Of a stretch of 64,000 nt of DNA, positions 5,235 to 29,700 are shown piece by piece. Within the stretch, counting starts at the first letter, position 1. Each line of letters starts with the position of its first letter. The notes beneath the pieces were generated by a model. That model saw nothing but the letters and a program-made list of their open reading frames with translations, did not search any database and was not told where the DNA came from. This stretch comes from Catajapyx aquilonaris (lineage: Eukaryota), in NCBI GenBank assembly GCA_000934665.2, contig KZ538347.1, forward strand, positions 1 to 64,000. The letters are read 5' to 3'. A program made the translations under genes and the position numbers.

Positions 5235-8200
5235 CCACAAAGTTCATCTTCATATCTTTATTGTCCTGAAATAGTTTGCAGGTTCCCTGTTTATAAAAAA
5301 ATAAATAAAGAAATAAAAGGTACGGAAGGGGATGTACTCTGCTGTATCCCGTCGCTTCACATCTTCAGGCTGTGGAGCAATGACTTCCTTGAGCAAATTG
5401 AAAAATACTACTGTACTGATACTGTACAAGAGACGAATGAAAAAAAAAGAGACTGTGTCCACTTCAATGTGACAGACCAGAAAGTGGAAGATGGAACTGA
5501 AAATTCTTTTTAAAAAACGGAGGCTCTAGAGATGTACAATACAAGAGTGAGAAAAAGGTCTGAGTTTTGCCTTGACAAGAAAAAAATTATAAAAACAGAC
5601 AGCCAGAGTGACAGAGAGGGCAGAGAATGGAAACAAATAAAAGGCCTTGTGGCAGAAATTAGGGGAGCCCAACTTTTTTTTTTCTTTTGACCTCCCACCC
5701 TTCCAATCGAAATGTTGTTTTGATACTACTGCAAGGCTCCCCTCATTTCCGCAAAAGGATGATGGGCTTTTCTCTTTAGGTCCCACTAGTTTGTGTTTCG
5801 TTTAATCCATCCATCCATACAATGAGAGGTTACAGCGTGGAAAGCAAGAAGAAAAACGATAATAATAAGTGGTAATAATAAAGAAGAGTGTGTAGTCTTT
5901 TTTTATATATATACCTTTTGTTATCAGGGGAGAAATGTAATTTTTTTTTTTTAAAAAAAGAAAGAAATTAAACTATTTTTTGAGAGGGTGTGCTTGCTGT
6001 GCTAAAATCTCTCTCTCTCCTAATTGTCGTACGTACGTTTTTCTTGTTACGTTAAAGGCGCAACTACCAAAGGTTGTCACAGCGACATATCTTTGCAAAT
6101 GTTTTTTTTGGCAACATGCCTCTAAGATTCTGCACTACTCCCTGAACTAAAAGGGAGTTGGTCGAGTCTCAACAACAATAAAAAAAAGGACTCATCCACA
6201 TCTATGTACAAGCACATGGCCATCGCAAAAATTCCTATTTCTTACCGCCTGCTATGCAAATAAAAGGGAGAAAATATGTTTGCAATACTTGTTACAATAC
6301 TGGCCAAGTACACTACAGGATATCAGGCGAGCGAAGAAAAGAAATTGTAATTTTTGCGAGGGCGTACAGTCCCACAAAAAATCGAAAGCATTTTCTGTCA
6401 GTGGCAGGGAAAGATTTTTTAAAAACTAAGAATTAGACACACAAAAAAACTGTCAGATGGAAAAAATAAACAAGAACAGACGGATTCTTCTCAAAAAGGG
6501 GGAGGGTTGATTAACAGGTGGGAAGAAGCTGTAAGAGAAGAATTGCAAAAAGGGACACTCAATAATAAAAGCCAACAGCCACAAAGTTTCTGTGGGCAGT
6601 GTGAAGAACGAGAGACAAAGAATGCAAGTGCTACACATAGCAAGAGATTATAAAGATCATCTAGCGCCTACAAACGACCAGAGTGGCAACGACATAACTG
6701 TTCAGAAGGAAAAAACGGGTGGAAAAAACAGGCAATTTTTTTCCCCTTTTTTTGTGTGTTTAAAAAGGTGCCAACTACCCAACTACATAATGGAAGAAGC
6801 TCGAAAAAGTTTTTTTTTTTTGTTTTTGTGGATGGCAGTTCACCTACACAGTTTTTTTTTTCTCCTTAAAAAAATTCGTCTTAAAAGTGTAGGCAAGAAA
6901 AAAAAAAGTTGGGTGATTGACAATAAAGTCTCTGGGACCCCTTCATCAATACCTTGTATATACGTTTTTATTACAAAAATGGAGTATCTGAAGTTTTCAA
7001 TGCAGTTCTTTAAATTTGTGATATATATTTTTTTTCAAACTCTCTTCTTCTTCTTTTTTTTCGTGGTTTGTATTTTTTAAAACCCCAGTCTAAACGCCTC
7101 ACGTGATGTGTTCACCTTATCATGTCTCTCTCTTTGTAACAAAGAAAATACACGTTTGGAAAGTTAACACACGAAAGGCTGGGTCATCAGCTCCGAATGC
7201 ACCTCCAAAAAAAAACAAATATATCCAAGGGAGGAATAGAACTCGAAAAAGGGAAATTTGAACAAACAGAAACAGTACAAAAGGGGTCACGTGACATCCA
7301 CAATATTCGAACTGACACCCAACCCTCCAACACACCTTCCCTGGTTGGCAGAAAGGCACGGTTTTCATGGTTTTTTTTTTGTCTCTTCAACTGTCACACA
7401 CCATTTGCATTGCGACACTTTGGCAGAGGTTTTTTTTTACTTTACAAAAATCAGAAAAGAAGCGTCACGTTTAACTTAATGAGATTCCTGCCAAAGTGCG
7501 GCAAGAAAGGTGGACGCTCACCCTCTTTATTTGTTGTATTGTGTCCAAATGAGGCGTTAGAACCAGAACTTTTTTTTGGTGGGTACTCTTTTTTTTTTCT
7601 TATCTTTTCCTGTTTTGGAGTTTTTGACAACACACTATGTCTATGATACCTTAGCTTTGATCCCTTAGGTATAAGCAAGAGGCACAAGGTATACAATACA
7701 GTTTTACATGAGGGCCTTTTTCTCAAGTGATCATACTGGTTACAGTTTCTTATAACAAAATAGGTACATAATCTTCATGTTTCACAATACCGTTTCATCT
7801 GTATTTCTTATAATGTTAAATTTAAATAAATCTGCCCTTTGTTTTTTTTTTTAAAATCATCTTCACATTTCAAACTCTCTCTCTCTCTATCTCCCCCTTT
7901 TTTTCACGTTGATATTGGCGTTTGTGATTCTGACAACAACAGGATGAAGATATGACAACGAGAGTGACTTATCACAATCATCGGTTCGGCGGCGACGGCT
8001 GCTTTGCAAACAACTATTATTTTTTTCCCCTTTCCCTGTAATGCATTTTCACATTTCGCATAGGAAAAAAGAAAGGGAACTGGAGAAAAATTGGAATCAC
8101 GACAATGAGAACAAGTGGTTTTTTTAAAAACTTGAGAAAGAGGACCGAGGATCAGCAAGAACGAACAGAAAATGACAACGGAAAAGAGAATCAAGGAGAA

Positions 8201-11200
8201 CCGGGTGGCATCACCAAAAAGTCGTCCTAAGGCTAAACACCTAAGACAAAAAGAGTGCCTTGAGAAAAAAGCAGTCCAATTGTTACGAAATGGACCCATC
8301 AAAAAAAAAGAGAGATAAAAAAGAGATGTATTAGGAAGAGTGGAAGTGTCTATAGCATTTTAAATGTCAAAAGCTGCATAATATGCTCAGGAGGGAAGAA
8401 GGATTAAAAAAAAACACATTGCAAAAATTATAGGTTAAATTTTAAATAAAGAAAGGACGGCGGGTATTTTTCTACATTTTTCTTGATGTCTCGCTCTTAA
8501 TATCAATGATTTTTCTTTGTAATATTTGTAATATATATACTTTTTGGCGGAGCCGTGTACAAGCCCAAGGAGCATTGAAAAAGGCACATTGAGACTCCTT
8601 CCTGTGTGGTAGAGTCACATTGACTGTGCAAAGGATTGTCACGAGAGGAATCTGACAAGTTTCTCCTGAACAAAAAAAAAATGGGGAACATAATCCGGTT
8701 ACTTTTCCGGGTTGTGTCCAGGACAAAAAACTCTTTGCTTTGATATGCATTCCTTCCGGTCCCAAATGTTACATTCTGCCTTAAAAAATCGCCTCCGACA
8801 TTTGAACATCACTTTTTTAACTGTAATGCAACTAAACTACGTTGGTCTTTGAATCATGTCAATAAAGAGACAGGTGAAGATAAAGAAGAGCACCATTGTT
8901 ACCCTGATGACCTGTGCATTACTGATAAAATCCACAGATATGTACGAGTTGCGGTGGAGACAATCCAAAAAACATGAGTATCCGGATTTCCAGGACGAAT
9001 AAAAGTCAGCTTCCTCGTTCCAATCCTGATATGTTTAGTATCTCTCTCTTTTTTTTCCATCATTTAAAATATTCCAGCTGGGAAAGTTGAAATGGGGGTC
9101 AGGATATTTTTGGCAAATTTTTAAAGGTTTAAAAAGATTGGGGGGGGGGGGGGANATTTACCCCGCCATTATTTTTTCTCTCAAAAAACCTCACACACAT
9201 TTTGGTTAAAAAGAGTTTTCCAAAGAAGTTGTTGTGATTGTCATTTACTGTTGGGATTAGTTGGTTTTTTTTCCAGTTAAAAAAAAAAAAAAAATGGGTA
9301 GCGCGGTTGGGGTCGGAGGGGTTGGGAGTAGGGGCACAGATTATTTTTAAAGCTATGCTGACAATACTGATGTTGAACATAATACATATGAAGCGTAAAG
9401 TGGACAAAAAATACTCAAAAGAACCAAACAGCAAAGGGCAGGGGGTTTTTTGCAAGGAAAACGAATAATTTTGCAGTCGTTTCTTTTTTCTTTTGTTTAG
9501 CCTTTTGTTCGCACTCCCGCTTCCAACTGATCTTGCCGCACTGCCAACAATAGTTAGGTTTTAAAAAAATAGCTTGTTACAATAGTTAATAATGAATAGG
9601 CATAATACTGACCTTCCAGTGCCCCACTTAGAAAATTACATGTTTAAACTCCTCAGATCATGCCTGCTTAGGAAGATTCATTTAACGTTTTTGGCGCCAC
9701 TGGAAAGGCCACAATATTTTTTTTTTAAACTGGTTTGTAATACTACCGAAAAAATGTCAAAAGCTGGCAATTTTTACTCAAGAAAAAATAGGGGGGGTAT
9801 GGAAGAGAAATACTTGGTTTTCTTTCTATACGAGTAAAAACCAATATCTTACACCAGATTCTACTCCCCTGTGCAAGAAAAAAACATGTCGTGCTCTCTG
9901 CAGTTTTAAAACTTATAAACAAGGATAAATAATATAAAATAAGAAATATTTCCTCTCATGGAATAGGCTACAGACACAATTAGAGTACAGTAAAAAGGGA
10001 TTTGGTAAAAATTGTACGAGTCATACACTACAAAGTTATGGTAGTACTTTAACCCGCTCCCTGTGTTGTGTATGTGTTTTGATAACAAGGTGAGTCAAAA
10101 GTCCGAGGCAAACTGATACTTCGAGACGCATGGTCTTAAAGCACAGTTTAAACTTCTTTTTAACTATTAAAAAAATGGGATCTCTTCTGACTGACCTTGT
10201 CTGGTATTTCCATGTGAATGTGTGTGCATGTGTAGTGTAATGTATGTGACCAAACGCACCCTGATTTTCCAAACAGCACATCATGGCATGAGAGAACAAC
10301 CAAAGCGGGCTACTGGAAAATTGCTCTATAAACCTCAATTGGAATGGCAAGAATAACGAAAAAAAAATATTCATCTTATATCCCAGGTAGGTTAAACACA
10401 GTTGTTTTTTTTTCTTGCAAAATTTTTTCCCATTTTGTAGTTTTTTGCCACCTCCTGATAAAAAATCTTTGTGGAGGAGATTTGGGAGGGTTCAGACGGA
10501 CAAAATACTGCAACATACACAACATTTGGCTCTAAAAAAAAAATCCTCGGAGGAAAAAAAGAAACCATAAAAAATTCCCACTTCAACTTTGAAATAACAC
10601 AGCATCTTCTATGATACATCTAGCTCTTTTTTTTTCTCCCTAAGGTTTCTAAGAAGCAAATGCAAAAATAGATTATATTCAAAAAGTAGAATGGGGAAGG
10701 GGGGAGGCTTATAGGTGGGAGGGAAGATAAAACCAATAGAGTAATTAAATTAACTCCCATCAAGAATCTATGGGTTCCAAAAATAGCGAGTCATCGACCT
10801 CAAAACTGTGATAGAGGGAATCCATGATTTTTTTTTAAATATTGGGGGGGATAGTTTTTTTTTTTAAACAGGGGGAATTGGTTGGATTGATTGATTGGTA
10901 TGTATCAAAGGCAAAAGTCTAAAAATTGACCAAGGGCCAGTTCCATGACTAACCGCACTACCTAAATGTATCCTAGCGATGCTTTTTTTTTTTGTCACTT
11001 TTAAAAAACGCTGTTATAATACCCTCAATCTCGCTCAAAAAGCACGTTCGCCCCCGAAAAAGAGAACACTTAAAACGACACCTGTTATGTAAAAAGAGCT
11101 ATCATGAAAATAGGAAAATGCATTCAGAAACAACTTAGTTTTCTTCTTTTTTTCCGAGTGAGATTATGCAATGCCCTTTTTTTTTGAAAAAATTGTCCAT

Positions 11201-11651
11201 TTCTTCAGTGTCTTCTGGCATCCTTTCATTTTTGTTTTCTCTTGAGATGAAAAACCACGTTGTGCACACAGAATATTTTCATCTCCAATTCCAGATTTAC
11301 CCCCAGTTCATTTCGCTCGCAACAATTGGCATTGGAACACGGTGTCCGCATATACATTTAAAAAAAAATGGATATAACACAACAAGAGAAACAAAACTCT
11401 TGAATCCATCACCCGCACGTGTTTTGTGAAGTCTCCTCTCTTTCTTGGAACAATATTATTCTCCATGATTTTTTGCACATGTTCGGTTGCCACTTGATTA
11501 CTTTTTTTTTTTGTCTCCCAAAGCTACACTATACAGTCCATCCCTGATTGGTGATTTAAACCAATGATAAAATTGTGGGCAGGGAGAGAAGTCTCTTCCT
11601 TCTTTCTCTCGCTCAGTCCTCCTTCTTTTGCATTTTAAAAAAATTGGTGAT
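5235..11651 (-). other. Putative long U-rich 3'UTR of PTB (4.1-6.4 kb, alternative polyadenylation)
   Basis: AT-rich, with U-runs and CU tracts on the minus strand and no convincing coding exons. By eye, the first canonical AATAAA after the stop is at 7526-7531, with others at 6967-6972 and 5257-5262. Confidence 0.6.
5257..5262 (-). terminator. Candidate distal polyadenylation signal AATAAA
   Basis: tttatt on the + strand, followed on the minus strand by a GU/U-rich element (ctttgtggcgttattttctgatttt). Lies near where UTR-like sequence gives way to TE remnants. Confidence 0.5.
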
Positions 11652-11720
11652 TTAGATGGTGGACTTGGAGAAGGACACCCGCAAATGGTTTGATTCACTA
11701 AGCTGGTAGTTGTGCATTTT
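11652..11720 (-). CDS. PTBP1: PTB terminal coding exon: [22 protein letters not shown]
   Basis: acttgcag|AAA ... ATC TAA; canonical PTB C-terminus [11 protein letters not shown]. Confidence 0.97.
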   Translation of the reverse strand, partial: KMHNYQLSESNHLRVSFSKSTI

Positions 11721-14700
11721 CTGCAAGTAACGACACAAATAATGCCACTTAGTAACAGACAAATCACAAATTAGTTCAGAGAAAATCATCTCGTAAACTT
11801 ACAATAAGAGCCATCACAGCATCTTCTACCACTGGTAGTTGGATGAGAGCCATCTTCCTGTCCTTGCTACAATTTAAAAAATAAAAATAAAACAGATTAA
11901 CTTGAAAAGTTGACACCAACATAAGCAGGCCGACAACAATTCTACTCACGGGAAGAACTTGAAGGCCTTCACCATGAACCCAATCTTGGTGAAGGCATCT
12001 TTAATCTCTTCCTCGGCAACCGTGGGTCTGAAATAACAACAAGTGAGTTAGCCCAAGCATGAGACGAAGCAGCAAGCAACAAAACCAACTACTAACGGAA
12101 TGTTGGACAAGTGCAAGGTCGCAGATGGTGGATAGATGTTCTGGTAGTTCTTGCTGCCTGGCTTCTTGAAACGGTGGAGGTTGGAGTTGGCATAGTCTTT
12201 GGTGAGGCCCGCATCCGGCTGGCCTTCCTTGGGCAGTTGGACCGTTTGGTGCTTAGAGGGCATCACTCGGATCTGCTTGCCAAACACCTTCAGCTTGTCC
12301 AGGTGAGTCATAGCTGAACGAAACCGAAATAAAACATTACATTTCCCCTAAAATGCCATGAAACCTTCCCAATAATTTAACGCTACTTACCAAGATGTGC
12401 TTGATGAGGTTCGGACATCTGCACTAGGGCACTGTCCTTCTTGTTAAAGAGAATCTTCACCCGTTGTACATCACCATATACTCCTGCGTATGGAAGAATC
12501 ACAGTAGATCCCTTACTTTTTCTTTTGCTTCCTAACCACAACTTATAAACACTTATGATACACCAAACCCTGAAAGTTTCCGACTCCTAGTAAAACAATA
12601 CTATCTACTAAATCCCAAACTTTCTTTCTTTCTTTCTTTCATTTTTTGTTGTTGTTTGAAAAGTGAAATGGGATATGGAAAAAGACAATGGGAAGAATGT
12701 GTAAAAAAAAGCTGGACTGACATAGCTTTGAATATACACATAACTGTATGGGACATAACACTTCCCTCTTTAAAAGGGATTTTTTTTAAAGGGGGGGGGG
12801 GAGAAAAACTACGGTAGATCGTCTGGAGATTCAAGTTTTGGTCTGTGGGCTAAAAATGTCTTGCTCGGTTCTGAATCAGTGAGAAAAAACAGGCAAGCAC
12901 TCTTCCCGTTCGGGAAAAAAAAAATGATAATAATTACACACCTAAGCCCAGCCACAGTCTCGAATCTGGTGACTCCCAAAGCTCAATAAGCCACATGCAG
13001 TAAATGTGAACGAGAAAAAAAAAAATCCTAGTCATATCAATAGTTACATTGACCTTTTTCTCGATGCCCAGTCAAACAATGAACACACACACACACTACT
13101 TAACATGTCAAGTATCACGTCTCAAAGCAAAACAAAATTAAAAATGACTGCATACAAGTAGGACTGAGGATCAAACAAAATTTGACAATTAAGCAGCTGC
13201 TCAATGTACGACACTGTCTGCAAGAGTTCTATAATATAAAGAAAGAAACACACGGGCCTTTGGTTTCATGAGCAACGGCTGTAATACTGTATAGATTTTA
13301 AAATAACGCACAACATACCAACGACCAATGATGGTCAAAAAACGAGAACAAAATGAATAAAAAAAACGCAAAAAAATAAACAATGTAATAAGTAAGTAAG
13401 TAAGTAAATAAGTAAAGAGAAAAAGACTTTGTGCATAACGTACCAAAAAGGGTAAAGAGAGCGTCAGGCGTGACCATCTACACGGTGGGAAGTGAGAGAG
13501 GGCACGACAGCAGAAGTTGGATTGTATTTTTGCGCCAGAGAAGAAGAGCAGGGGTGACGGAGAGTGGAGGTCCGAGAGTTTTGCGACCGCCAGCAGAGTG
13601 GAGGAGTTGTGTGGAAAAAAAGGAAAAAAAAAAAAAAACAGGAAAAAACATTACACTCTCAGCTGATCAATGGACACACAAGCTAGTCTCAAACCACAGA
13701 TCCTAATCTCCCTGATTTGCAAAACCGATTTCCCCCCCATACTTGTTACGATCAAATCGAATCATACCCCAAATTTCAAATCAACCCCACATTTACTTTA
13801 GAATTAATCCCTCCCAAAAAAAATGTCAGGAGTGTGAATGCAGCACACTCTTAGTTTTCTTTTTTCTTTTTTAATGGTTAAAAGATGTACACAAAAATAA
13901 TAACGTAAAAGAACAGCTGTAAAAACACACAAGCAGCACCCTACTTCTGCCTGCAACTACTGACTGAAAAGAAACAGTGACAGCGATTAGTATGGAAGTG
14001 GCAAATAGAAGGGAAAGACTTGGCCTGGCCATGAAGGATCACACTCCATTGTAAAATGTATTAACAAGAAGAAAAAAAATTATATAATGGAATGAATAAA
14101 ACAAAAGCACTAACATATGTCAAAAAATAAATAAAATAAAAAGAGTAACATCTACAAGCCCTGGGTTGGAAGGGCAAAAAGGGAACAAGTACGATGGCAC
14201 AGGAAAAGCGAAACTTAGACAGAGAATAAAAAAATGGCAGGGATCAGGCGAAAAGACCAGATGCCAAACTGACTTTCAATTTAAAAGTTGAAGTGCCGTT
14301 ATGTTATTCGGCCGTTATTGTTTCTGAGCTAGGAGTTATCCACGTGGAAAATGTCTACAAACAACGTAAAATTCCCGAAATCAACCCAGGCCTTTACAGG
14401 TCAGAATGTAATATGTCCACCGCACTCTGCAGTACAGTAGCATGCCCTGCTTTGCTAACTCACCAATGTAAACATGCTACTGTACAATGCTGGAAAACTT
14501 TTCACCATCGTTTGAGGCTGGTTGCGAATTCATTACGCACAACAATTTCAGGCCGGCATTTTGGCCAAATAAAAAATCAACAAGCTCGAGAGCACACGAT
14601 AAATTTACACAATGTAATTTGCTGACGAAAACCAGAAAGCCTCGTCTGGCAATAAAACAAAATTTTAAGTGGACATACACAATTAAAAACCAGCAATCAC

Positions 14701-17700
14701 TCTGCAAACCCCGTAAGAGTGACCACATTACAACAGAAGTGTTGACCCCTCATTTAACATGTAGCCAAGTGATGCTCCTTGATTGCACCATTTAAGTCGC
14801 CAAGTGATGGCATGCATTCAAGGAGCTAAACATGCAAATAATAATAACGATGGCTAAGGTCACTCGCTATAAATCTGCTGGGGTAAAAACGGTTGCACAA
14901 AATTATGGGAAAATATATCAATTATGGTAAGAACAAAAACGCACCTCCTCGTTGAGGTTGGTGACCAAAAGGACACACCCCGCCTGAGGTTGACCTGGAA
15001 GCCGAAGTCCTGCTGCTCCGAGGGCAGTGGTGGCGGCGGTGCCCGGAAGAGGAAATCCCGCCAGGGGCATCCCTGCTGCTGGAAGCATAGGGGCCAAGGG
15101 GGTCAAAGGGTCACAGGGGGGTAGGATAAGTGTGAAGGAGACAGGGTCGTAAGGTGAATCGAGAGAGATGGAGAGAAAGAAAAAAAATTGGGTATTGACA
15201 CTTGGTGTTTGAACAGTGGAGAATTGTCATGCTGACAGTTCTCATCTCTATGACACGACATGGCTCACACATCGAGAAACGTCGCGAAGGGGAAAATAAT
15301 GCAACTAGGCTCTAGGAGCTAAAAAAAATAAAGGAGCTCCCCATTTTATAGTGTGCCTGGAAATAAGAGTTTTTTTTTTGGCGGCCACTTATCCCCCTTT
15401 GTCCATCGTTCCAATGTAAGCGGCTTTTCTAACGTCCACAGCACCCAAAATCTTGAACCAAAGCTTACAGTAGTTTCATGCAATAGGTATGTTATGAAAG
15501 GAAAGGATGCCTGTTGGAGTATTGCAATATTATTGTCGTCCATATTTACCTATGGTACTGAAGACGTAGACTAACGGTCCTGCTTTTCCCAACAGCATGT
15601 AAACAGTTTAATTGGGAATTAATAAAACTTGAGCAGTTGTTGGCTACAGCGACAAAATTGTTAACGCCCACAAAGTCATTTATCGGAACATGAACAGTGA
15701 GTTTGAAAAAATGAGCAAGAGAAGAGTGGCTGTGATATGCAATGAGTAGCAAAAAAAAATAATTGTCGGAGCACATTTCCTCCTCCAGGCATGAACTTAC
15801 AATGTGTGAATATGCAAAACATTGCACACACTTTATCTCACGTCCTTTCCACCAAAAAGAGTTATATCCTAAATAATCCAAACATTTTTTTTGCAGGGGA
15901 GCTTGAAAAGGGGGCGGGGGAGGTTCCAAAAACCAAAAGACCAGGAAACAGAGCAACAGTAAAAGATAATGAGATAGAGAGAGTGAGTGAGAGGGAGATA
16001 GATAAAAAACTGTACACGGTAAATGCACAGGAACAGACGGGTAGAGAGAGAAAAATTCCAATCGCGCCAGGAAAAATAATAATGGAACTTGCGGTCCCAC
16101 GTTTTATCGCTAGGACCCCCACAAAAAAAAATTCAAAGTCGACTCTTTTTATTTTTCCCACATCCAGCAAACAAAAGGCCAACGCCACCAGAAGAGGAGG
16201 GCAGGGGGAGGGCGGGTTTAGAGAAGAGTTTGACCACTGGAGACATGGCCCAAAAAATTTGAGGCAGAAGAGCAAGAGCGAGATTGAAATAAATGCAGTT
16301 TGATAACTTTTTAATGCTTGAGAGGGGGGAGGGTAGAGACCAAGAGATGTTTTGAGGGTTTGTTGATTTTCAGAGGTAGATTAGTGCCTACCTCCCACAG
16401 TAGTTGAGCCGTACGGGGCTGTTAGAGGTGAGCCGAGCCCATGCATGGCAGCAAACGGGGAAGCCAGCACTCCGGGGCCACCTATCGAGGCACCAGAACC
16501 ATCAACTTCCTCTACTCCCATCGGGTCAAACGTCAACATCAAAATAAATAAAAGTGTCACATCCTTTGGCTCAGGGTACAGCTCGATACAAATCTCTGAC
16601 TCTCACTCACTCACTTCAGTAGCCTACCTAATCCCACACGGCTACAATGAGTGTGTCATACAAGGACTCGAGTCCAGCCAATGGCGACATTCTATACTGT
16701 ACTACAGGGTGGTGCGCAATACCTGACGTTACGGCAACAACAAATGTTTATAACAATCGTTAACATTAACAGAGATTGTAACGACTCACACCTTTCTGTT
16801 TCATTACAAAGGCCATCCTTTTTATTGGCAATATTGAAAGTGTCATAATCACTGCTATTAAAGGCGACACTTTGCTCTTCCACTACATTCAGTTAAAAAA
16901 AATACTGTGCCATAAAGCAGTATACTGCGGACCACACTGCAAATGAGACAGTATACCAATTGGGAGGAAAAGTAGCTCTCAAAAACTTATCCATGCGAAC
17001 AGATGGTGCCGCTCACATGGCCCATTACCAGTGTAACAAGCTGAATTTTAGCTATACGTGACATTAGCAGTGTTTTGTGTGGCGATTATCGTAATGCAAC
17101 TGTCTGCAGCTAATTACAACTAGAAATGTCTTGTGAGGGCCCCATCAGTCCGTGACACCGACAAGACTTGAGGGCGACATCTTCAGCTTCCAACTGGCGA
17201 ATTGAGACAAAGTATGGCCTTCGGGCCTTGTCCTTACCCGACATGCCTCCAAGCGCAAGGGCAGAGTCCAGTGCCGGGTCTCCAGTGGGCAGGTTTGGGT
17301 TTGTGTAGTCTCTGCTCTTGTCATTGTTGTACTTGACATTGAGGCTGGACAACTTGGAGTACTCGATGCGCAGCGTACAGCAGGCATTGTAGATGTTTTG
17401 GCTATCCAGAGACTGCAAAATGAGAGGAAGCATGTGAAGGGGAGGCCGCTCTCTTCAGAGGCTCAACTTTTCAGAGCTTCAAAACTGGCTCCTGATGAAA
17501 TACCTCCGGACTTAGACGGCTTCAAAATTAATAAGTTCGCTAAGAAGAGGATACTACTCGATGGGAGGGCTTACGTTTGAGAAGTTATCACCTCAACATT
17601 TCCCTTTTGTTCTCGCAACGAAATTTCATTAATGGAAGAGTTTCTGAGGACTTGTCAAAGACTTACAGCATCTCATGTCAAACAGGGTTCATAATTATTG

Positions 17701-20700
17701 TCGGCTTATTAAAAACTTTGCCAGGGAGCACCCTAAGAAAATGCAGCAGCAGATGAGGGGGTCTACACGATTAAGCCCTTTGTTACACAGAACACACCTT
17801 TTCTGGGGAGAGAGAAAAAAAATGGGTGCTGCACAGGCCAGATTCTTCAGGAGCAGGGCAGGTCAATATTTAACATACAAGTGCATTAATCACCCCTCCC
17901 TGGCAGCAGTTGCCAGGACGAGGTGTCGGATGTTTGGCGTCCATAATTATTCATGTCACAGTTTGTTGTAACAGGCTTATTGAACCTCCCCTCACCCCTT
18001 GCTTTTCCAACAATCTCTGTGGTTAAGTGTCTGGCTTAGGTGGACACCAGTCTAGACTACAGCCACCGGGATCAACCCATCCACCCCCGCAGGGAAAGCA
18101 AATCAAGCCAGTAAGTGGATTCCGCCAGAGCAAAACTTGATTTGCGGCATCACAGAAACTAGATTTGTAGCGATGCAAAATTGCTCCCATGCAGTATACA
18201 TTTCGCTTTAAATGGAGAGGGGCATGTGATCTTCCGGACTGGCATGCCCCAAAATCAGCTCCGGATCAGATTCGATTTGCTCCTTGTGTTAACACGCACA
18301 CCGGCTACCAGCCAGGTAATTGTGCCTCCGTTTATCCTAAGGGCTCACCGGACATTTGCTCTATAAACACTCTTTTCTCTCTTTTTCTATTTCCTCTTTT
18401 TTTCCCCAGTCGCTCGCAGCCTCATCCTCCAAAGTTCCAGGAACTTTGCAATTGACCATAGCAGTGACCGCTCAATTTGCTTGGGGCCTATGGGACCCCT
18501 CCTGGAGAAGCTGCTTCTCCTCCCATAAATAACGTTAGTGTCCCAACTAAGTTTCTACGGGCATTCCGAGGGACTAAAGGGATCTCTTCTCTAAAGGTAA
18601 AACGCCAGAGCTCCATCTTACTTTAACCGGCTCTGGAATAGTGTGGCCCAAAAGCTGGGAAAATCGGGGGGCGAAAATTGGGGATCGAACCGGAACGTTC
18701 TGGTCATGATATTAAACCGTAACTTATCTGGAAACCGATTTTTATATGATGTTACTAAATAAAAAAACTAGAAAAACCCTCGCTTCGATCACCAGGTGCG
18801 GATGTGGGGAGCGATGTAGACCCTCCGGCAGACAGCGAACGGATAGTTCCTCTTCGCACCCACCAGAGGCGCTGCCTACACCCCATTGCGCATGCGCAGA
18901 ACGGGGGCCAATCAGAAGCGTCGCGGTAACACTACATGGCGGACCAATCAGAAGGCATAATAACCATACAACATGAATAGGATATTAATATCATAAATTA
19001 CTCGAAGCAGCCCCAAGATGGCGCGACTGGCCCTTTCTCCGGCAACATTCTCAAAAATAATCCCTGGTCATTAATAGGATTTTTATCTACGTCCTGTGCA
19101 CACACAAAATCCGCCTGCATAGTGCATTGCTGGATCTACAGTCACTAAATTAAGAACTTCTCCCGGTGGTCCATGTAATTTTTTAATGCCAGGCTAGTGG
19201 CATGGAAAAGCAGTCCCCCCCGATTCTCTCATACAAGTTTCATTGGTGGATGGCGTCCTGGTGCAACAACTGAATTAACCCCCCCCACCAGCTGCAGACA
19301 AGTCCTGCACGTGCATGTCATGTGTGGTATCCTGACAGTACACTGCATGGTATTTTTGGGCAAAGTTTTACAACAGAAAAAGAGAGAGGTGTAAATGAGT
19401 ATGGATTTGGGCCTGGTACGAAGGTCGTGATTGGTCTGGCGACCGGAAGAGCTGCGGTCAACATGGCCACGTCCGCAGGCTTTTGTCCCCGGCCACCTAT
19501 TTCCATAGCGGCTCCTCTGGTTGGCCGCAGGTGAAAACATCGATGCAGCTCGATGCCCAGGTCAAAAACATGCCATATGTGTGCCCGGAGGGGGGGGGGT
19601 AGATGTCATCCCGGTTCAATTGGGGGTGCTTTTTAGACGGTTGAACGCAGACGCCATTTTGTTTTAAGCGGGTCAACAAAATGGCGTCGCTTCCGGTTAT
19701 GAACAGTATGATGTCATTTCCTGGCATAAACAAGATGGCGTCATTTCCGGTTTATGAACAAAAATGGCTTCTGTCTCTCTCGGACCAAGTTTGCCTTCTC
19801 ATTTCCCTCCCAGAAAATGAACAAATGCGATTAGCGAGGGCCCTAATAGGCCACTGCGCTCCGACTAATGAAGATGGCTGTGCAAGGCTGCTGTCACCTC
19901 GCCCCGCTTAGAGAGCTCCCAAACCCTTAAAATTTTAAAAAGAAGAAAAGAGAGAGAGGGGGGGATTAAAAATGGGCCAAATTTCTAAAGTCCGGCAATC
20001 TACATGAAACCATTGTTTAGCGACTGCACCTGAGAGAATGGAGGCAGCAATTAATTGCCCAGGCTGCACCAAAAGAGGCGACCGATATTATTAATAATAG
20101 CCACCCCCCCCCCTCTCAAAAATGCCTTATTGAGCCCGCAGCTGCTGGCTGCAAGTGACCCCGCTAATTACGAATTAATTAAAAAACCTGCGCCTCTCAT
20201 TTTCTTCATTCAGACAGCTTGTCCACCCAATGATTGTCAAATTATTAATTTGCCGCCTTCATTAATTCCGACCAAGAATGTTCTCCCCAGCATTCAAAGG
20301 CAACTAATCAGCACGCATGTACAGGGTGATGCCCCAGCAATCAGCCTTTTGTCTATTACCCTGTACTTGAGCCCTCTTTTTTTCAAAAATAATATTTTTC
20401 CAATTTGCGATTGGAACACGGCAGGTTTCCGTGTCCAATTGGCGAAGAAACCAAATAAAACCAACTCACCAATTTGGCCGCCTGCGCCGTGACCACGTCC
20501 GGGTACTGGATCAAGGCTTGGAATGTGTCTGGAAATAAAAGCAGATGATACATGAGGTGGGAACACGTCAGCCTTGTCACTCTGACCATCCCCTCCTCTC
20601 CCCCCCAAAAAAGGCAGTGAGGGGAAAGTCCGTCCCGACCGCCTTTAATGGCCGCTCATAAAATCGCCCCTGGTCATCAAACCCCCTTCCCCCTGTTTTA

Positions 20701-23700
20701 CATGATTATCCCACGCATAATGAATGAGCTCTCGCAGCAACTAAACTTTCTGTCCTTTTTTTGCCATCCGCCCTTCAAACCGAAAAGAATTTTCAGGTGA
20801 AAAAGCCCCTGGCCTCGAGTGCAAAATTGGGGCAATTCCGACCCCCCCTTTCGATATCGATACTGTCATCTTTCTTCATTAGCAAACCTGGGGATTAATA
20901 GGAAATGTGATTACATTAAGGCTTGATGATGATGGGGGAGGAAAAGCGGAATGAAATTGGGTGGCTAAGTTCAGGGTTGAAAAAAGCTGGGGGTCAAATT
21001 GGCACGAACTGGTCTTGGTACAGTGTGAACGGGTCAGTCCGGGACTTCGTTCGTCCGGACTTCAGTCTCGGTGTATACGAATGGCTTCATAAGTGACTAA
21101 CCCCTCTGGTCCATGCCACTAATCAAATCAAGTCGGTTTTATTCGTGTCATCAAGCGAGTCTGCGGGCTTGTCAATCAGAATTTTCGGGGGTAGGACCCG
21201 GGCTATAAATCCTGCGATGCTTCCCCTCCCCCGCACAGTAGGGCACAAAAGGGGCTTAAGCCTGCATGAATGGTCTGGCGTGTTTGCGACGATGAGGCCC
21301 CCCTCCATCAAAACAGGCCTCTTTTGTCATGCGATTTGTTTTCCGGGGGTTTGAGCCCCCGGAAAACAGGCCTCTCTCCAACCCCCTTAATTAATCCTAC
21401 CCACACACCCAGCAGATGATGAATACCTGGGTCCCCCCCAAATGTATATCATCGTGACCAGGAGGCATCATCAAGCGATTTTGGACAATACCTTAAGACG
21501 TGGCAACCGCCCCCATTCAAACGGGGCTAGTGCATTCAACGCTTTGTTCGCCATAAGTCTATCGGCACCTACCAGACTATCGAATCCGGGGCCCTTTTCC
21601 GGCCACATAAATCAAGGGGGGGTTCTCAAAAGGTCGGATTAGTTCAGGGGGGGGGGGGAGAGTAATCACTCTGGGAGTAAAAAGTGCAAACCTGGCACAG
21701 TCGAGACTTGGATTCGCTCCGGACAAATACGGGGGAAGGGACTGGACCTATCCGGAGAAGGTCACCCCCCAAAAACGATATGTTATCCTGAACCTCAAGG
21801 GTGCCCAATGCAATTTCAGCATGAAACCTTAGCATTTCTCACAGAGTTAAGGTCACATGTGTCAGCACTCTAGGAAAACTAATCAGCCAATATTGTTGAC
21901 CCTAGTGCGTTTTCCAAATTATTTCTGACATGCTCACTTGTCATAATAAAACATGCATTATAGCTTGCTGTAAACACATGGCGAACAGTTTTGCTCCTGA
22001 AAGTTTTACTTCCAATTGGACGGGGGTGCTGTTGCATACCGTGCAGGATGAAACGACTCACATTTTACACAACTTCAGATGGTGGCGGACAGCAGTACAG
22101 TAACATAATTTACTAAGCAGGTTAAGTGTTGTGTTGTGAGTGTCAAAAAGTACCGTTTAGGACCACGTCGCGATTGAAAAGAAATCGTCAATAAAGTGAA
22201 CTGAGATACTCACTGTTTTTGGTGAAGGTGACGATCTTGAGCACTTTTCCGACGCGTGAGAAGATCTGGAAAGAAAAAGGAGAAGACATTTCCGGTGAGA
22301 AGAACAGTTTCCAATATTGAGGGTTACACACACACACAAAAAAAGATGGTGGTAGCAAAAGGGTAGGGTTTTTTTTTTTTTTTTTTTTTCCAAAGGTGGC
22401 GTATGCGCCATAAAAGCAAGGCAAGAGGCCGTAACGCTCCACTTTTATTCCTTTACAACCTGGTCTCGATGCCTCCACTGCATAGCACAGGAAGCACCAT
22501 TCGTGACGTATCGTATTCCACCAGACTACGCCAATTGCTTCGTACTTTTTGGACCATTCCCACACTTCCTCCCAGGGCCATGCATATAGATTACTCTATT
22601 TTATTCGCCAAGTAATCACATTTTCCCCCCTCCCCTTACTCGTAGCTCTAAATTAAGCAAAACTAGTGTATACTTGCATAATCCACATAATATGTGAAAT
22701 GCGGATACATGCACCCAGCACATGACTGTCAGGCTTTGATCAAAATGGCCCTCGGACAATGTACGTGCAGCAAACAAGCTACAAATATATCCCCGGCAAA
22801 AGTAAATATTAAAAGCATAATCACAACCCATTGATTTCAACGAGTTCAACAAATACACACCCGGCAGGACCGTTACATTAATCCAGGGCCCATTAAAATT
22901 TATAATTGCGAACCTTCTCCCTACGGGGCTCAAGTTTTGAACATGAAACTCCGGCTGTACCCGGGTAATTTCTCCTAGAAAATAGCTAGAGCCCATCTCG
23001 TGCGAAATAAAGTAACATGAATTGGGGAAAAGAATAAGTCTCCTAATGAGGCCTCTCCAAAGTGGAATTTGCTTCGGGTAGCTGGAGGCAAGTAGGAGAG
23101 AATTCCTACATTAAAAAGAAAAAGAAAGATAGATAGATAGAGTGAGTTACCCTGGCCTTTTCTTTTGTCTTTGGCTGCAAGGAACGTCAGCACGACGACG
23201 ACAAACAGTTACAAGCTCTCCTCATAGTCGACTCCCCATCTCACTAAGACGAGTCGGAGAAAGAAAGAAAAAAAATGCCAGGGAATCGACAAGGAAGTCT
23301 CACGAGACAAGACGAAGACGTATAAAACAAGAGTAAGGGCCGGAAAGAGAAAAAATCATAATTAGCTTTCCTGGATCCCCGTCGCCTCGAGCTCAGCACT
23401 GACGTGAATGCAATTTAAAAAATAGGGATGTCCACGGAAGAAACAGAGGAAGGAAAAACTGTGGAGGCCTAAGATTAGGAAAATCATCGTTAAAGTCTGC
23501 TTTAAAACTGCAATTAAGAATGCCAATTACACGTGCAGTAATGGAAGTGCCAAATTTACAAATGAGCATTACGTCGTGAAGGACGTTAATTTATGGCAAC
23601 ACGGTTCAGCGAAATTCAGCCTAAACCAGTCACTGCCGATGTGTCGGTTTTTTTCACACACATGAATTGCTATTCAATAATAATACTCGATATCGATTTG

Positions 23701-26700
23701 CGATACAGAAATCCCTGATATCTCACAGCCGCAGTGCATGGCGTGTCCTGCCATAAAATCGCCTGAACTTTGAGAGAATTAGCCTTTAAAATGGGGGAAG
23801 CTCTTAAAATCCTCGGGGTCTCCTTGCTCTACTTGTTCAGGTCACCTTTTTCGGGCCAAGTTTTTTTTCTTTCTTTCTTCCAGTTAGGGAGAGGCCCCCT
23901 TGGGTAAAGAGAAGCAGCGCCATTTGGCGCCTGGAAATTAACCGTCATTATCCCGCAGCAATTAGCCGGGTGCGATTCCTCAAGTTGGGATGAATAATTG
24001 CCACGTCTTTTCAGTGCCTGGAGAGAGCAATCACGCGTCTGTAGCGAAACCTGCACAAAAGGGAGGGGGGCCCGTTTTCCCCTGATGGGGTATAGTGGAT
24101 GGATAGGCTTCCTTTTCACGTATGTGGAGCTTAGCCTGCTTTTGGCCGAGGCTTGCCCGGGTTTCCATTTCCCCCCCTCCCACTCTCCAAACTACCCCCC
24201 GTCCCCCCTCCTCTCACCGCTAAATGAAATTCCTGGGAGGTATTTGTGCTTTCAGCCTTTTGTTTTTACGCCCCGCTTTGCAGGCTTCTCCGCACCCACC
24301 CAAACCCTCGACACTCACTGGGAAGCCCACCTTTTTGAAGAGGGGACAGCAGGAGGTTTGGAGGTTGACCAGAACAGGAACAGAGAGAAAAAAAAAGAGA
24401 TTGTCACTTCCAGACATGGTGGAAAGGATTCTCAGCATTTCTCGCCCCGATAGACTCTCTTTTCGCCTGATTTAATGCCAGCTAATTTCATGCCCCATCT
24501 AGGAGTGGACCACTGAGTGGCCCTACCAGTAGACGAAGCTACCCCCGGCGTAGCTCTTGGGGTCACGGGAGAAACTCACCATCACGTGCTTCGTTTCTGT
24601 CTCCATCAGTCCCACCTTTGTGTCTTCTGACAGCCACAGTTTGGCTACTTCCTAATAAACCTAAGATACACTTGCAAAAAAGGTAAAACCGTCCTGTTTC
24701 TTAGCCTGCCATAAATAATTAGAAGTACTACTAAGCATCAACAAGCTCATTTTCCAAATAGTGTCTGCTCTTATCGGTCCCCCACTAAAATGCCCGACAG
24801 CAAGCCGAGTGAGGAAGAGAGAGAGAAAAAAAAGCATGCTCGCAAAACTCCGAAGCCCAAATGATCACCCTTTCCCCTCCTCCTAATTCGGCAGGGCCCA
24901 ACACAGCTCTGCCATCAATGGGCCCATGTCTGGCCCATTTGGAGGGGGGGCGCACCGAGAGAAAGTAGACAACATGATTCGTCCCCTGAATCAACCAGGG
25001 AAATACCCGTACCATCGTCAGTCGGGAGAGCAGCCCTCCCCCAAAAAAGGGGGTGGGTGTGGGTCTAATCCTATGCCAAAACTAACAGATTCGCAACGTG
25101 CATTCCATGTTCTGCCATGCTGACGTCCGGCTAACATTTTTTTTGGGGGAGTTCCGACTCCGAGACTGCGGGAAATGAAAATTCACTCGCATGCCATTGG
25201 CAATGATTTTTATGCGGGGGTCTGGATTAATTTTACCACTCCCCGGCTTCAACCGTACTGGGCGATTACGGGCCACAGCAGTGATCTCTGGATCAGGTAA
25301 CTGCCAGGTATAAAAACTAGGCAACTGTATTATTCAAATGCGTAATGGATTTCACTGCACGCTGACAACGCATCTGGGGTTTTTTTTTGGGTGGGGCAGG
25401 AGCAACGGTCACACTATTAAGCTGCAGTTTTGATATGCAAGCCAAGTTGCACGAATGCATAAAATATCCACAATGCATGCAATTGAATCGATACGGTTTA
25501 TTAGGAAGGAGCCAAAGCAAGTAACTGGCTATAAAAAGATACAAAGATGGGACAGATGGAGAAAGAAACGAACACAGTTGACCAACCCTGTTAAAATTTC
25601 TGAGCAACAATCTAGTAGAATTATCTATGAAAACGATTTAATTAAGGGCGAAGGTAGGTGGGGGGTGGGGATGGTGTGCGTTTCATTAAGATAATCGATA
25701 GAACAAATTGGCGCAGGGCCTATGGCAGGCCACAAAGCAAACGAAGGCGGACCAAGTTTTGGTTGGCACGTGTAAACAGCTCACGTGCTGCCTAACCAAG
25801 CGGGCGTCTTGGTAGTAAATTCGCTGGCTGAGCAGAAGACACTAGAGAGCCCACGTCTCCTTAATTGGAGCCAACATTATCTGGCGGCACAGGCTCGTTC
25901 CTCCAACACAAGCCTCAGCACAGCAGAGACAAGAGAAGGAAGGAACATTGAGTATGCTGCTGGTAACCTTCCCAACAATCGATGGGGTTTGAGTGTGAGT
26001 GTGTGTGTGTCCGGACTAATGGTCGACTCGGACACAAGCACCATTTGCGGGATTACAAGTGCCGTTCGGATCCTTTTCCCAAACGCCTTCAGTTCGGTTC
26101 CCCGGATTATAATCTAATCCCCAAACTGCCCCCGTGCTCCAATTTACACCGGATCCGTGCTGGCCCTCGCTTAAAAAAAAGGAGACCCGGGGAACAATAA
26201 TAGCACCGATTATAATCCGGTTGGGCATTGGCAGCATTGGGCTTAAAGGTAGGAAGGATTCTTCCTTTCATCACTGGAAGGGATGGAATCAACAGGTGGC
26301 TTTAAGATGGTGGGCGGGAAACCGGAAAAGGCTCTTGGAGACCTGCACGTACTCTCTTTTTTTTCTCTACTTCTCACCCCCCCTTTGCTCCTATCCGGAG
26401 TCTGAGAAACCTGAGACACATACGGGCTCCGATCTCTAGAGAGGCGAAAAAGCCGCCTCTAGAATCATAAGGTGTGAAGGGGCCAAAAAAAAAAAATCAA
26501 TCCCGGATAATTCGAGTGGGCGAATAAAACGGACCCAAGTGGCTATCACCTACACGGCCGCAGGAAATTAATAGACGCCAGGAAATAAGGCTTCGGATCT
26601 TAACAAGGTCCGAAAAGTTTGTGGGAGAAGACTCGCAAGTGTAGCGCCAATTTCGCCAAACAGTACCTTTTGAACTATAACTATTGCTATATCAACACAT

Positions 26701-29700
26701 ATGAAGGGCTAGGGAGAAAAAATGTGTTAACCGTCATTTCACTGGACGTTAACATATTGTTCTCCCAAGCCCTTCGTATATAAGTACTTGATCATATCAG
26801 AGGTCGAAATATTCAGATGTAAAGGTGCAATTTGCACTCCAAATACACACGTTCTGTTTGGAAATAACTTGATTGGTTGCACGTCAAAATTATTATTTGC
26901 TTTCCAAAGTGACCCATGGAGTGCAAAGTTTGCACCCCAGTTGGTCCTGTTTTTTTATAAACATAGCTAAACCCAATAATTAAACATTCCAAATAATTTG
27001 CACTCCAGATGAAAGTTTCGAGTGCAAAATTTGCATAGCCCCCCCCCCCCCCAAAAAAAAACAACAACTTAAGATTCGACCCCTGTGATATGTATAGAGG
27101 AGTCAGGCCAAATGATTACACAAAATGTTGTCCTTACCTGATAGAGCACGTCGAGGGTGACAGGATAGACCATGTGCTCTATGATTACACGAAGAACTGT
27201 GTTGGGCCCGCCCTGAGTTTCGGTTTGTCCCACGAGGGCTTGCGCCGCCTGCAGCGCCGCCTGAGCCGATGCGTTCTGTAACAAAAACACAAAAAAAAAA
27301 ATTAGTACAAATAGTCACCCCCCAAAAAATGGAGCAAAAGTAGGCGATCCTATTCCCAGAGCATATATAGCAGGCCAGTGTATGCACAAATATGACCAAA
27401 TATTACTTCCGGGCACTCCACTTAACTGTCCTTCGGCTCCTGCCCTGCCTGCCTGATTCTCTCCCCTGCCCGTGTCCAAATTCCATTACTTCGGCCCCAA
27501 TGCTGTTTCAAAAAATAACCGCCCCAGCTGGAAAATTGGATTAGGCCACCGAGCTCTTGTGCGGCGGCAATTGTTCGGCGGAATTGGCCAGAACCGCCCC
27601 CCCCCCCCTTCCCCCATCCCTCCCAGCATCCCCACTTCTCCCCTCCAGCAGCAGCAGCAGGGTCCAGATAAGCCGCAGCTTCTGAGAGGTCTTGCACCAG
27701 CACGGATAGCCTTTTCTCCTTTGCAAAACCCTGCACTGCAGTGGACACCCGCAGTCCATGCAAAACGGCTCGCTTTTGGTTATAAAAGAGGGGGACACCT
27801 ACTTTTGGCACTTTCCGTTTGCCTTTTAATCCATCAATGGCGGACACTGATTCCTAGCTAATAAGATTATGCGACCAACATGGGCGAGTGCGCGGTCGGT
27901 CGCAAAAAAAAAGTGCGCTCAATTCACATTAGGGACAGAGGAAAACTATCCTCTTTGCATCTCTCTAAGCAATATTGCATTTTTATGCACTTTTTTGCAA
28001 TTCGGATTTTCGGCACTTAGATATGTACGCTGGATGAGTGGACGTGGGCAATGGGTTGAAATTTTCGACGTTGGTAGAGTGCCACTCTTACTTGGCCACA
28101 ATTGACAGGCGGACAGGTGAAACGGTTCAGCCCACGCACTCGGTCGTGTACGGCTGTCACGACCCACAGAAAGACGAAAATGCAATGGTGTGAATCGGAC
28201 ATATCAAGCTCTAATCACAACGGGTAATATTCAGAAACAAGGACTAGCTCTGAGGGGGGCTTCAAGTCCGTCGATATACGCTCTAAATGCAGTGTTTACT
28301 CTTTCCCGACAGCATTACAAAGACGAGAGAGAGAGAGACAGAAAAAAAAACCCTGAGCTAAAGGTCCGTAGGGTTTGTTCCTGGTCTCGGCCGCTGGGGT
28401 CACACGCAACACAAAAGGAAAACTGGGGCCGTCCAGCCCAGGTCTCCTTTCCTCCGATCCATCAAAGTGACGTTGAGACAAGAGCACACCCCACCCACTT
28501 AATCAGGTAGAAGGAGAGGTCCCCAAGGGCACCCTAACTTACGACTCGACATTGTCCGGAAGAGAGGCCGCTCTCTCTTCCCCTACTATACACACAGCAT
28601 GGCGCATTGCTCAAGTCCATCAGTGGTACAAGAAGGTCGCATAGTGAATTTTTTTTAAAAAAAATAAGAAAAAAAGCTGCTGATCATTACCAGTAAGTAA
28701 GCAACGATGAGTGTTCGACACCAACTCATATTGCATGTAGCTACATCTTAATGTCTTGGTCAGTGCACCACCCTGTACAAGGTGTATAGTGCAAAACACT
28801 CTGGTTGCCAGGCCTCGGTTTCTAGCTACGCCTCGTTAGCTGCCTTCCTTGGCTCGCACCGCAAGGAGGGCCATAAATCCGGGCCTCCATTTAATTAATT
28901 GAAAGAGCGGAATGCGCGTCGCACCCCCTCTACACACATTACATACTTTTAAAAAAACAAAAAAAACAGGAGGTCACGGAGGGCAAGAGGATGTGGTTCA
29001 GAATCTTTTCAAAGTTAGAGGCAAGTTCGACATACTTTTGGGTCTTGCTTCGTAATTAAGGTAGGCCTGTTTTTTTGAGGGGGGTGTAAGTAAATCCTCG
29101 TTTAACAGCTCCTCTTGGGCATTAAGTGGCTCTGGGAAGGAATGGGGTGGAGGCAGCTCTAAAACGAATGCGCGTGCCGCTCCTTTCCTTTATTGCCAGA
29201 CGAATGTCAGAGAAATTAACACAGTTGTCACGTCCTTAACCCCCCCACTGCCGCTCCCGGATTTATCCCACCTTAACTAGTCAGACTCCTCCTAGGGCTT
29301 AATACCTTCCCGTTTTTCTAAACCTGGGATTCATCCTGACAGCCAGGCCACCGCAGGATTGTTCGCTGCACTGCATAACCGACAGGATCAAGGAGAAGGT
29401 ATACCCAACGTGTCATCCCCAGCAAAAAAAGTCGCTTCATCACACCCAAAGCACAGAATTACATTGAAATTTGACAACGGACCTCGTTCCAAGTCAAATA
29501 ACGAACCACCCACCAATTTCCCCCCGTCTTCTTCCAATCACCGCATAATGCCACCCTTCCCTTTTTCCCAAGCTTCAATTTGTCCCATCGCGACTCTTTA
29601 TTACCATCAAGCTGCCAAAAGGCACCCGGGAGTGAATTTCAAGCTTTTTTTTCTCTCCCCCCACCCCACCCCCACCAAAACCCTCTCTCCATCTATTTTT

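Follow-up and report, generated by a model that had tools for sequence, protein, structure and literature searches.

The window analysed here, a stretch of 64,000 nucleotides (nt) from Catajapyx aquilonaris (contig KZ538347.1), carries on its minus strand a gene which by its sequence is an orthologue of PTB/hephaestus and encodes four RNA recognition motifs (RRMs). Exon 10 of this gene is 34 nt long and, because 34 is not a multiple of three, its skipping shifts the reading frame and leads to a stop codon in the next exon. We suggest that exon 10 is the probable arthropod counterpart of the switch exon of vertebrate PTB genes (exon 11 of PTBP1, exon 10 of PTBP2). That it is a genuinely skippable exon of unproductive splicing in arthropods we consider very likely. 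As to the whole chain, i.e. a skippable exon, PTB as its repressor, nonsense-mediated mRNA decay (NMD) of the skipped form and the resulting negative feedback, we are slightly inclined to accept it.

Autoregulation through PTB exon 11 is a textbook example of splicing-coupled decay and has been studied in vertebrates, where skipping of PTBP1 exon 11 reportedly serves autoregulation and leads to NMD. The vertebrate switch is already known; what is new here is the arthropod cassette in 13 loci, a long zone free of AG dinucleotides upstream of the exon, two exon-less transcript contigs and a bias towards CUY (CUC or CUU) leucine codons within the exon.

Exon 10 and its conservation among arthropods

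The gene model was obtained by tblastn with a termite PTB (P0003), which recovered all exons as matching segments running from 62475 to 11655 on the minus strand. Joined by coordinates, the 15 exons form a single open frame of 535 codons that ends with the normal stop codon TAA, and GT-AG borders are present at all 14 introns. Pfam RRM_5 matches exon 11 (E 2.7e-09) and exon 12 (E 3.3e-09). The encoded protein (535 residues) is 87% identical to PTBs of stick insect, cockroach and termite and 84% identical to decapod PTBs; the protein search returned 3810 PTB relatives, the best 120 of which are named or unnamed PTB-type proteins. Arthropod PTB was also aligned to the structures of RRM1, RRM2 and RRM3-4 of human PTBP1, in the case of RRM3-4 without a gap across the exon 10 region. 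Because of the exon recovery, the open frame, the RRM_5 matches, the PTB relatives and the RRM3-4 alignment, we assign the gene to PTB. It is the only PTB gene within the window; a start codon was found neither among the 15 exons nor elsewhere in the window.

Exon 10 lies between the acceptor ...gtgtag and the donor gtacgt (G|GUACGU). When exon 9 is joined directly to exon 11 (14945 to 12483), the reading continues as GAG TAT ATG GTG ATG TAC AAC GGG TGA, that is, with eight new codons and a stop. From this TGA it is 66 nt to the donor of exon 11 and 494 nt to the normal stop, and four junctions (E11/E12, E12/E13, E13/E14 and E14/E15) lie 3' of the premature stop. The initial annotation of this DNA, which proposed an autoregulatory switch here, gave all coordinates correctly (exons 9, 10 and 11, the skip junction and the TGA), as confirmed by the sequence and by recomputation, and the skip-to-stop design around the 34-nt exon could be read in the same way. 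The exon, described there as pyrimidine-rich inside, is CU-rich in its 3' half. The donor that it called non-consensus is indeed weak, since TTG|GTACGT agrees with 6 of 9 consensus positions, yet it is not the weakest of the gene (5 of 9 in exon 12, 6 of 9 in exon 8).

The exon 10 peptide aligns without gaps to RVTPQSLFILFG of human PTBP1, at the start of RRM3, where we take the borders of the human exon to lie. This match, together with the retention of the design in arthropod genomes, bears out the homology to the vertebrate 34-nt exon. It is the conservation in other genomes that raises the exon 10 feature above chance.

Related loci were collected from metagenome contigs scanned with the exon 12 peptide; 317 pattern matches yielded 180 confirmed relatives, and the best 80 of these were kept. 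In thirteen genomic loci among them the 34-nt exon stands alone, bordered by AG and GT; six distinct exon sequences are represented. Five loci are cockroach/termite-like, about 97% identical to cockroach and termite proteins (L004, L007, L010, L011, L012), one is ant-like and 93-95% identical to ant proteins (L023), four are water-flea-like (L028, L031, L032, L037) and three are other arthropod-like loci (L069, L075, L077). At the genomic loci L001, L003, L005, L006, L008, L009, L045 and L080 the sequence upstream of exon 11 is too short to score; their sibling loci have introns of 4.4-6.5 kb upstream of exon 11.

The skip-frame stop occupies the same place in 11 of the 11 loci (out of 13) where the exon 11 borders could be inferred cleanly; L028 and L037 were left out of this count, whereas clean borders were obtained for their siblings L031 and L032. 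GT follows after 93 nt in 10 of the 11, so that the stop is again 66 nt before the exon 11 donor. A skip-frame stop inside exon 11 is present in 20 of 22 distinct related exon 11 sequences. The skip-to-stop design proposed for the window is therefore kept in arthropod genomes, with 13 loci containing the exon and the same-place stop in all clean cases.

The one exception as regards the donor is L077 (1404-3480), an intron-poor gene in which residues 14-261 and residues 363-535 are each encoded contiguously. Its 34-nt exon (2837-2870) has kept an intron on both sides; exons 11-15 are fused, so there is no donor and no exon junction after the skip-frame stop. In L075 (1277-2040) the introns beside the 34-nt exon are approximately 394 and 335 nt long; the other introns of that locus, through which tblastn read, have only about 60-110 nt.

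Spliced RNA, recognised by a coding region free of introns throughout, accounts for many of the 80 loci; two of these lack the exon. According to the alignments, L015 is 99.1-99.7% identical to L016, L018, L019 and L020 with exactly 34 nt missing, and L027 is 99.1-99.4% identical to L025, again with exactly 34 nt missing. The missing stretch coincides in both cases with the exon whose borders the water-flea-like genomic loci define. Both open frames run over the junction and end at the homologous TGA, as ...NLNEE-VFTEMCIV-stop in L015 and ...NLEEE-AYMATYNA-stop in L027. The best named relative of L016 is Daphnia sinensis (89%), and L027 is 72-75% identical to decapod PTBs. Exon-less transcripts are real in two other species, a water-flea relative and another crustacean-like animal.

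Among 21 contig pairs with at least 97% identity, we found four length differences within the coding region, and the two 34-nt deletions are the sole frame-shifting ones. The other two, of 90 nt (as long as exon 8) and of 36 nt (in the linker), are in frame. A fifth length difference is in a 3' untranslated region (3'UTR). Skipping of the other small frame-shifting exons (52, 59 and 64 nt) was not seen in any of these 21 pairs. The 90-nt variant (L019 against L015, L016 and L018) and the 36-nt variant (L025 against L027) probably represent ordinary splicing of protein isoforms in the linker between RRM2 and RRM3. Two predicted proteins, P0211 and P0212, were considered as exon-less isoforms and rejected; they are annotation artefacts from water-flea-like genomic DNA, in which exon 9 is read into the intron (...NLNEEVHLICLYF...).

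Flanking introns and RNA of the exon

The upstream intron contains an AG-exclusion zone of 176 nt in front of the exon 10 acceptor. None of the other 14 acceptors of the gene has one as long, and only one of the 2910 AG-free gaps in its introns is longer. The AG-free zones upstream of the 34-nt exon measure 180, 101, 407, 470 and 225 nt in five representative loci; compared with the 1 to 4 other acceptors that could be placed per locus, the zone of the 34-nt exon exceeds every one in 11 of 11 loci examined. Its length in these 11 loci and the window ranges from 69 to 474 nt, the shortest case being L075, with 69 nt against 22 and 17 nt at its other acceptors. In the gene of the window the second longest zone belongs to exon 5 (169 nt), and that of exon 9 has 120 nt.

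The AG-exclusion zones described in Gooding 2006 measure 381 nt at exon 11 of human PTB, 438 nt at exon 10 of nPTB and 590 nt in Fugu; a distant branch point at -351, next to a U-rich tract, was verified, and a predicted one at -389 is given for nPTB exon 10. In our window, the far end of the AG-free zone contains an unbroken pyrimidine tract of 26 nt, mostly U, which may be the polypyrimidine tract of a remote branch point. The 176-nt zone and the U-rich tract suggest a distant branch point, as in vertebrates. The conserved long AG-free zone is a further vertebrate hallmark, one that the initial annotation did not list.

With 2303 intronic windows of 200 nt as a comparison set, the 200 nt upstream of exon 10 (69% pyrimidine) fall within the top 0.4%, and the 200 nt downstream (65.5%) within the top 1.35%. 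The alignment of exon 10 with a cockroach/termite-like locus reaches 13 nt into the upstream and 46 nt into the downstream intron; for exons 12 and 13 it enters the introns by only 2-7 nt. In a multiple alignment, the blocks common to the window and the cockroach/termite-like loci are CUGCUCUUC, CUCUCUCACUUC and GUACGUUAUGCACA. The second of them, at -23 to -12 of the acceptor, is a candidate PTB site. Comparison of orthologous loci, which the initial annotation asked for, shows that the exon size of 34 nt is kept and that flank conservation consists of short blocks, between species whose divergence is not established. RNA structure around exon 10 was not significant (z -1.7). Search for known RNA families in 11000-16000 gave as its sole match a Listeria small RNA model with E 0.084, far below threshold, which we rejected.

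The coding sequence of the exon itself seems to be constrained at the RNA level. Pyrimidines occupy the third codon position 147 times out of 187 in a set of 17 distinct exon 10 sequences, compared with 658 out of 1207 in exon 12 (Fisher p 1.9e-10; the statistics ignore kinship and some codons, Phe and Asp, are forced, so the p-value is overstated). Leucine is encoded by CUC or CUU in 28 of 33 cases in exon 10 and 33 of 119 in exon 12, and the first leucine of exon 10 is CUY in every lineage that has leucine there. The conserved blocks CUCUCUCACUUC and GCUCUCUU are CU-rich, and CU-rich sequence is the kind that PTB binds. In mouse, mutation of a CU-rich element of exon 11 abolished the response to PTB, and the effect of RBM4 likewise depended on this element (Lin and Tarn 2011).

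Proposed mechanism, rival explanations and known systems

The mechanism we propose is as follows. Inclusion of exon 10 would yield the full PTB with four RRMs, RRM3 and RRM4 being in frame. Its skipping would add eight wrong codons up to the TGA at 12459-12457 and give an unproductive mRNA, most likely removed by NMD. The exon would be skippable due to its tiny size, its UAG acceptor behind a tract broken by purines, its GUACGU donor and the 176-nt AG-free zone upstream. PTB, and perhaps other CU-binding proteins, would bind pyrimidine-rich RNA within the exon, on the stretch from the U-rich tract to the exon and immediately 3' of the exon. Binding of PTB would block exon definition and lead to skipping. 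High PTB would then result in less productive PTB mRNA, which constitutes negative feedback. The parts of this scheme that we infer are removal of the exon-less mRNA by NMD, repression by PTB itself, the distant branch point and operation of the switch in C. aquilonaris.

The decay step requires a separate comment. Hexamers AATAAA and ATTAAA are absent for 4115 nt after the normal stop, where 9.2 would be expected and where introns of the gene have 4.3 per 4115 nt; none of 2000 simulations lacked them over this length. This points to a 3'UTR of about 4.1 kb or more, which is kept free of poly(A) signals. The very long 3'UTR of the initial annotation is thus not directly seen, and the hexamer-free stretch makes it likely. 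The geometry of the stop, 66 nt before a junction, was given correctly as well; the argument built on it rests on a vertebrate rule, while NMD in Drosophila is independent of exon-junction complexes (Hansen 2009) and L077 has no junction after the stop.

Several observations weigh against the proposed interpretation. Because Drosophila NMD does without junctions and the normal 3'UTR already seems to have about 4 kb, it is unclear how decay would tell the two isoforms apart; for these reasons, and in view of L077, we regard the decay step as uncertain. Only two contiguous contigs lack the exon and 45 contain it, though some of the 45 are intronless genomic DNA. A minority of exon-less forms is expected for a decay substrate and equally for splicing noise. 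A search with the tail of the exon-less open reading frame of L015 returned four hits and none with the skip tail (two are full-length proteins, two are gene calls reading exon 9 into the intron). The CU-rich flanks of the initial annotation stand as pyrimidine content; classic PTB motifs are not clearly enriched in them over the intronic windows (upstream, YUCUYY with n=5 in the top 5% and UCUU with n=2 in the top 22%), and downstream a (TTAC)8 microsatellite inflates the pyrimidine content. A CUCAC with its A at -16 of the acceptor could be an ordinary branch point, so a distant one is not required. The valine codon that makes the stop is not detectably favoured, GTR being present in 17 of 22 cases at this site and 35 of 56 elsewhere in exon 11. 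Decapod-like L036 and L040 have no stop inside exon 11 in the skip frame. Finally, the exon 10 segment is fused to its neighbours in genomic DNA of L034 (8825-10423, on a 58.5-kb contig), L041, L035 and L056, whose only intron, of 67 nt, separates exons 2 and 3, and at least one lineage has lost the cassette.

The simplest rival explanation is that exon 10 is constitutive and is occasionally missed because it is tiny, its intron positions being old and conserved, with no regulation or feedback. Every annotated full-length relative includes the exon 10 peptide, which is 100% identical in termite, and the peptide ALFTLF in part dictates the pyrimidine run of the exon. The small share of exon-less contigs (2 against 45), the modest motif content of the flanks and the lack of detectable selection on the skip-frame stop codon fit this explanation too. 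Noise, however, does not readily account for a long AG-free zone that is kept in 11 of 11 loci and in vertebrates, nor for the preference for CUY, which is found at the first leucine wherever there is one and in 28 of 33 leucine codons as opposed to 33 of 119 in exon 12. It is also at odds with intron flanks conserved past the splice sites, with the introns retained around the exon in the intron-poor L077, with an exon-less form abundant enough to be assembled in two species, and with the near-identical pairs, among which the other small exons that would shift the frame (52, 59 and 64 nt) are not seen to be skipped. We consider mere noise unlikely.

Two further rivals accept regulated skipping. 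In the first of them, splicing is unproductive and regulated without autoregulation, and the repressor is another CU-binding or tissue-specific factor acting, for example, during differentiation. This has a precedent in mouse RBM4, which also drives skipping of exon 11 via the same CU-rich elements (Lin and Tarn 2011), and the flanks of the exon in the window contain no more than a modest number of high-affinity PTB motifs. On the other hand, PTB is a proven repressor of the homologous exon in vertebrates (Spellman 2007; Lin and Tarn 2011). Such a repressor also has to be reconciled with conserved blocks (CUCUCUCACUUC, GCUCUCUU) that are CU-rich, the kind of sequence bound by PTB, and we judge it improbable, to a degree similar to that of noise or a little more so. 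In the other rival, a stable exon-less mRNA encodes a truncated PTB (RRM1, RRM2, the linker and 8 new residues) that has an independent function. Exon 2 of PTBP3, likewise of 34 nt, is skipped without NMD (Tan 2015), L077 has no exon junction after the stop, and the normal 3'UTR is already long. Against this, the out-of-frame tail is not conserved: it reads EYMVMYNG in the window and VFTEMCIV, AYMATYNA and VCMEMCSV elsewhere, and none of the four hits of the tail search is an annotated protein with such a tail. A protein isoform switch is in our opinion very improbable. Regulated unproductive splicing with PTB as its own repressor stays the reading we prefer.

A more far-reaching proposal concerns the age of the switch. 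The self-limiting module of PTB, whose parts are the frame-keeping exon of 34 nt, the long stretch without AG and its distant branch point, and the CU-rich core of the exon, may predate the split of arthropods and vertebrates and represent an ancestral bilaterian trait. It would then have persisted for over half a billion years, also in L077 after near-total intron loss. We put this forward tentatively and with some doubt, on the basis of the arthropod loci and the vertebrate literature; at least one lineage (L034, L056) in which the segment is fused to its neighbours speaks against it.

Among known systems, PTBP1 exon 11 is the closest. The genes are orthologous, the 34-nt exon is at the start of RRM3 with a peptide aligned to RVTPQSLFILFG, skipping leads to a stop in the next exon, and both exon and flanks are CU-rich. 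The long AG-free zone is shared as well, although it is shorter here (176 nt) than in human (381 nt; Gooding 2006). The two differ in that PTB dependence and NMD are proven only in vertebrates, in that flank conservation here extends over tens of bases and not over a block of the ultraconserved type, and in that arthropod NMD may not use the junction rule. PTBP2 (nPTB) exon 10 is likewise a homologous 34-nt exon with an AG-free zone (438 nt), and its skipped form is an NMD substrate; there, however, PTBP1 acts in cross-regulation between paralogues, whereas this window has one PTB gene. According to Spellman 2007, the vertebrate exons are 34 nt long, PTB represses the homologous exon and skipping of PTBP2 exon 10 creates the NMD substrate. 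Exon 2 of PTBP3/ROD1 is also a frame-shifting exon of 34 nt, repressed by PTBP1/2 and preceded by an AG-free zone of 168 nt (Spellman 2007), but it is situated at the 5' end of the gene, and the skipped mRNAs are not NMD substrates and use downstream start codons (Tan 2015). In the non-triplet essential exons of C. elegans fubl-1/fubl-3, an RNA-binding protein represses its own frame-keeping exon and the product is an NMD substrate; these proteins belong to the unrelated KH-domain family and were studied by genetics and reporters (Nat Commun 2026, PMC13247117).

Plants offer a more distant parallel. PTB homologues of Arabidopsis reportedly control their own level via splicing coupled to NMD, and are said to do so by inclusion of a poison exon, not by skipping of an essential 34-nt exon, so that the structure is not homologous. 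For invertebrate PTB, a full-text search, in which titles and abstract beginnings of the results were considered and subscription journals were largely outside, found neither such an exon nor unproductive splicing. The available parts of a paper on Drosophila hephaestus and the embryo transcriptome contain no occurrence of 'autoregulat', and those of a survey of Drosophila NMD (Hansen 2009) no occurrence of 'heph' or 'PTB'. Skipping of an invertebrate PTB exon is likewise not mentioned in the available parts of a PTB review, a plant PTB review, Lareau and Brenner 2015, PMC13247117, Spellman 2007, Gooding 2006, Lin and Tarn 2011 and Tan 2015.

If our assumptions are true, the origin of the switch lies well before that of the vertebrate paralogues, in which it serves cross-regulation, and control of PTB dosage through one exon would be an ancestral bilaterian trait. 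The AG-free design with a distant branch point would then be a conserved part of the mechanism and not a vertebrate oddity. Genetically tractable arthropods would become models of PTB autoregulation, and the exon would provide a test case for recognition of premature stops in animals with junction-independent NMD.

Coordinates and minor observations

Table 1. Features of the PTB gene in the window
Feature	Position	Strand	Remark
Upstream part of the gene	15079..62472	minus	exons 1-8
Exon 1	62472-62371	minus	tblastn and coordinate-based gene model
Exon 2	53497-53342	minus	tblastn and coordinate-based gene model
Exon 3	34026-33880	minus	tblastn and coordinate-based gene model
Exon 4	27275-27138	minus	tblastn and coordinate-based gene model
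Exon 5	22265-22214	minus	52 nt; tblastn and coordinate-based gene model
Exon 6	20528-20470	minus	tblastn and coordinate-based gene model
Exon 7	17412-17238	minus	tblastn and coordinate-based gene model
Exon 8	16481-16392	minus	tblastn and coordinate-based gene model
Exon 9	14945..15078	minus	134 nt; ends GAG GAG, complete codon; donor GAG|gtgcgt
Candidate polypyrimidine tract	13613..13638	minus	unbroken 26-nt pyrimidine tract, mostly U (-161 to -136), far end of AG-free zone
AG-exclusion zone	13480..13655	minus	176 nt, upstream of exon 10 acceptor
CUCUCUCACUUC block	13489..13500	minus	-23 to -12 of exon 10 acceptor; common to cockroach/termite-like loci; candidate PTB site
Exon 10	13444..13477	minus	34 nt; 11 codons and first base of Gly
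Start of intron 10	13398..13443	minus	first 46 nt, alignable with cockroach/termite-like loci (GUACGUUAUGCACA...)
Exon 11	12391..12483	minus	93 nt; part of RRM3, Pfam RRM_5
Skip-frame TGA	12457..12459	minus	last two bases of Val codon and first of Lys, in R-V-K
Exon 12	12097..12313	minus	217 nt
Exon 13	11950..12027	minus	78 nt
Exon 14	11803..11866	minus	64 nt
Last exon (15), coding part	11652..11720	minus	normal stop TAA 11654-11652
Putative 3'UTR	7531..11651	minus	first AATAAA/ATTAAA hexamer at 7531

Undetermined bases (N) occur singly at 9155, 30498, 55338 and 58926, and as a run of 130 bases at 60217-60346, inside intron 1. Skipping of exon 5 (22214-22265, 52 nt) would likewise shift the frame. 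At the acceptor of exon 8 (16481-16513), a second AG is visible by eye 30 nt upstream; it keeps the frame, adds 10 residues and may be an alternative acceptor.

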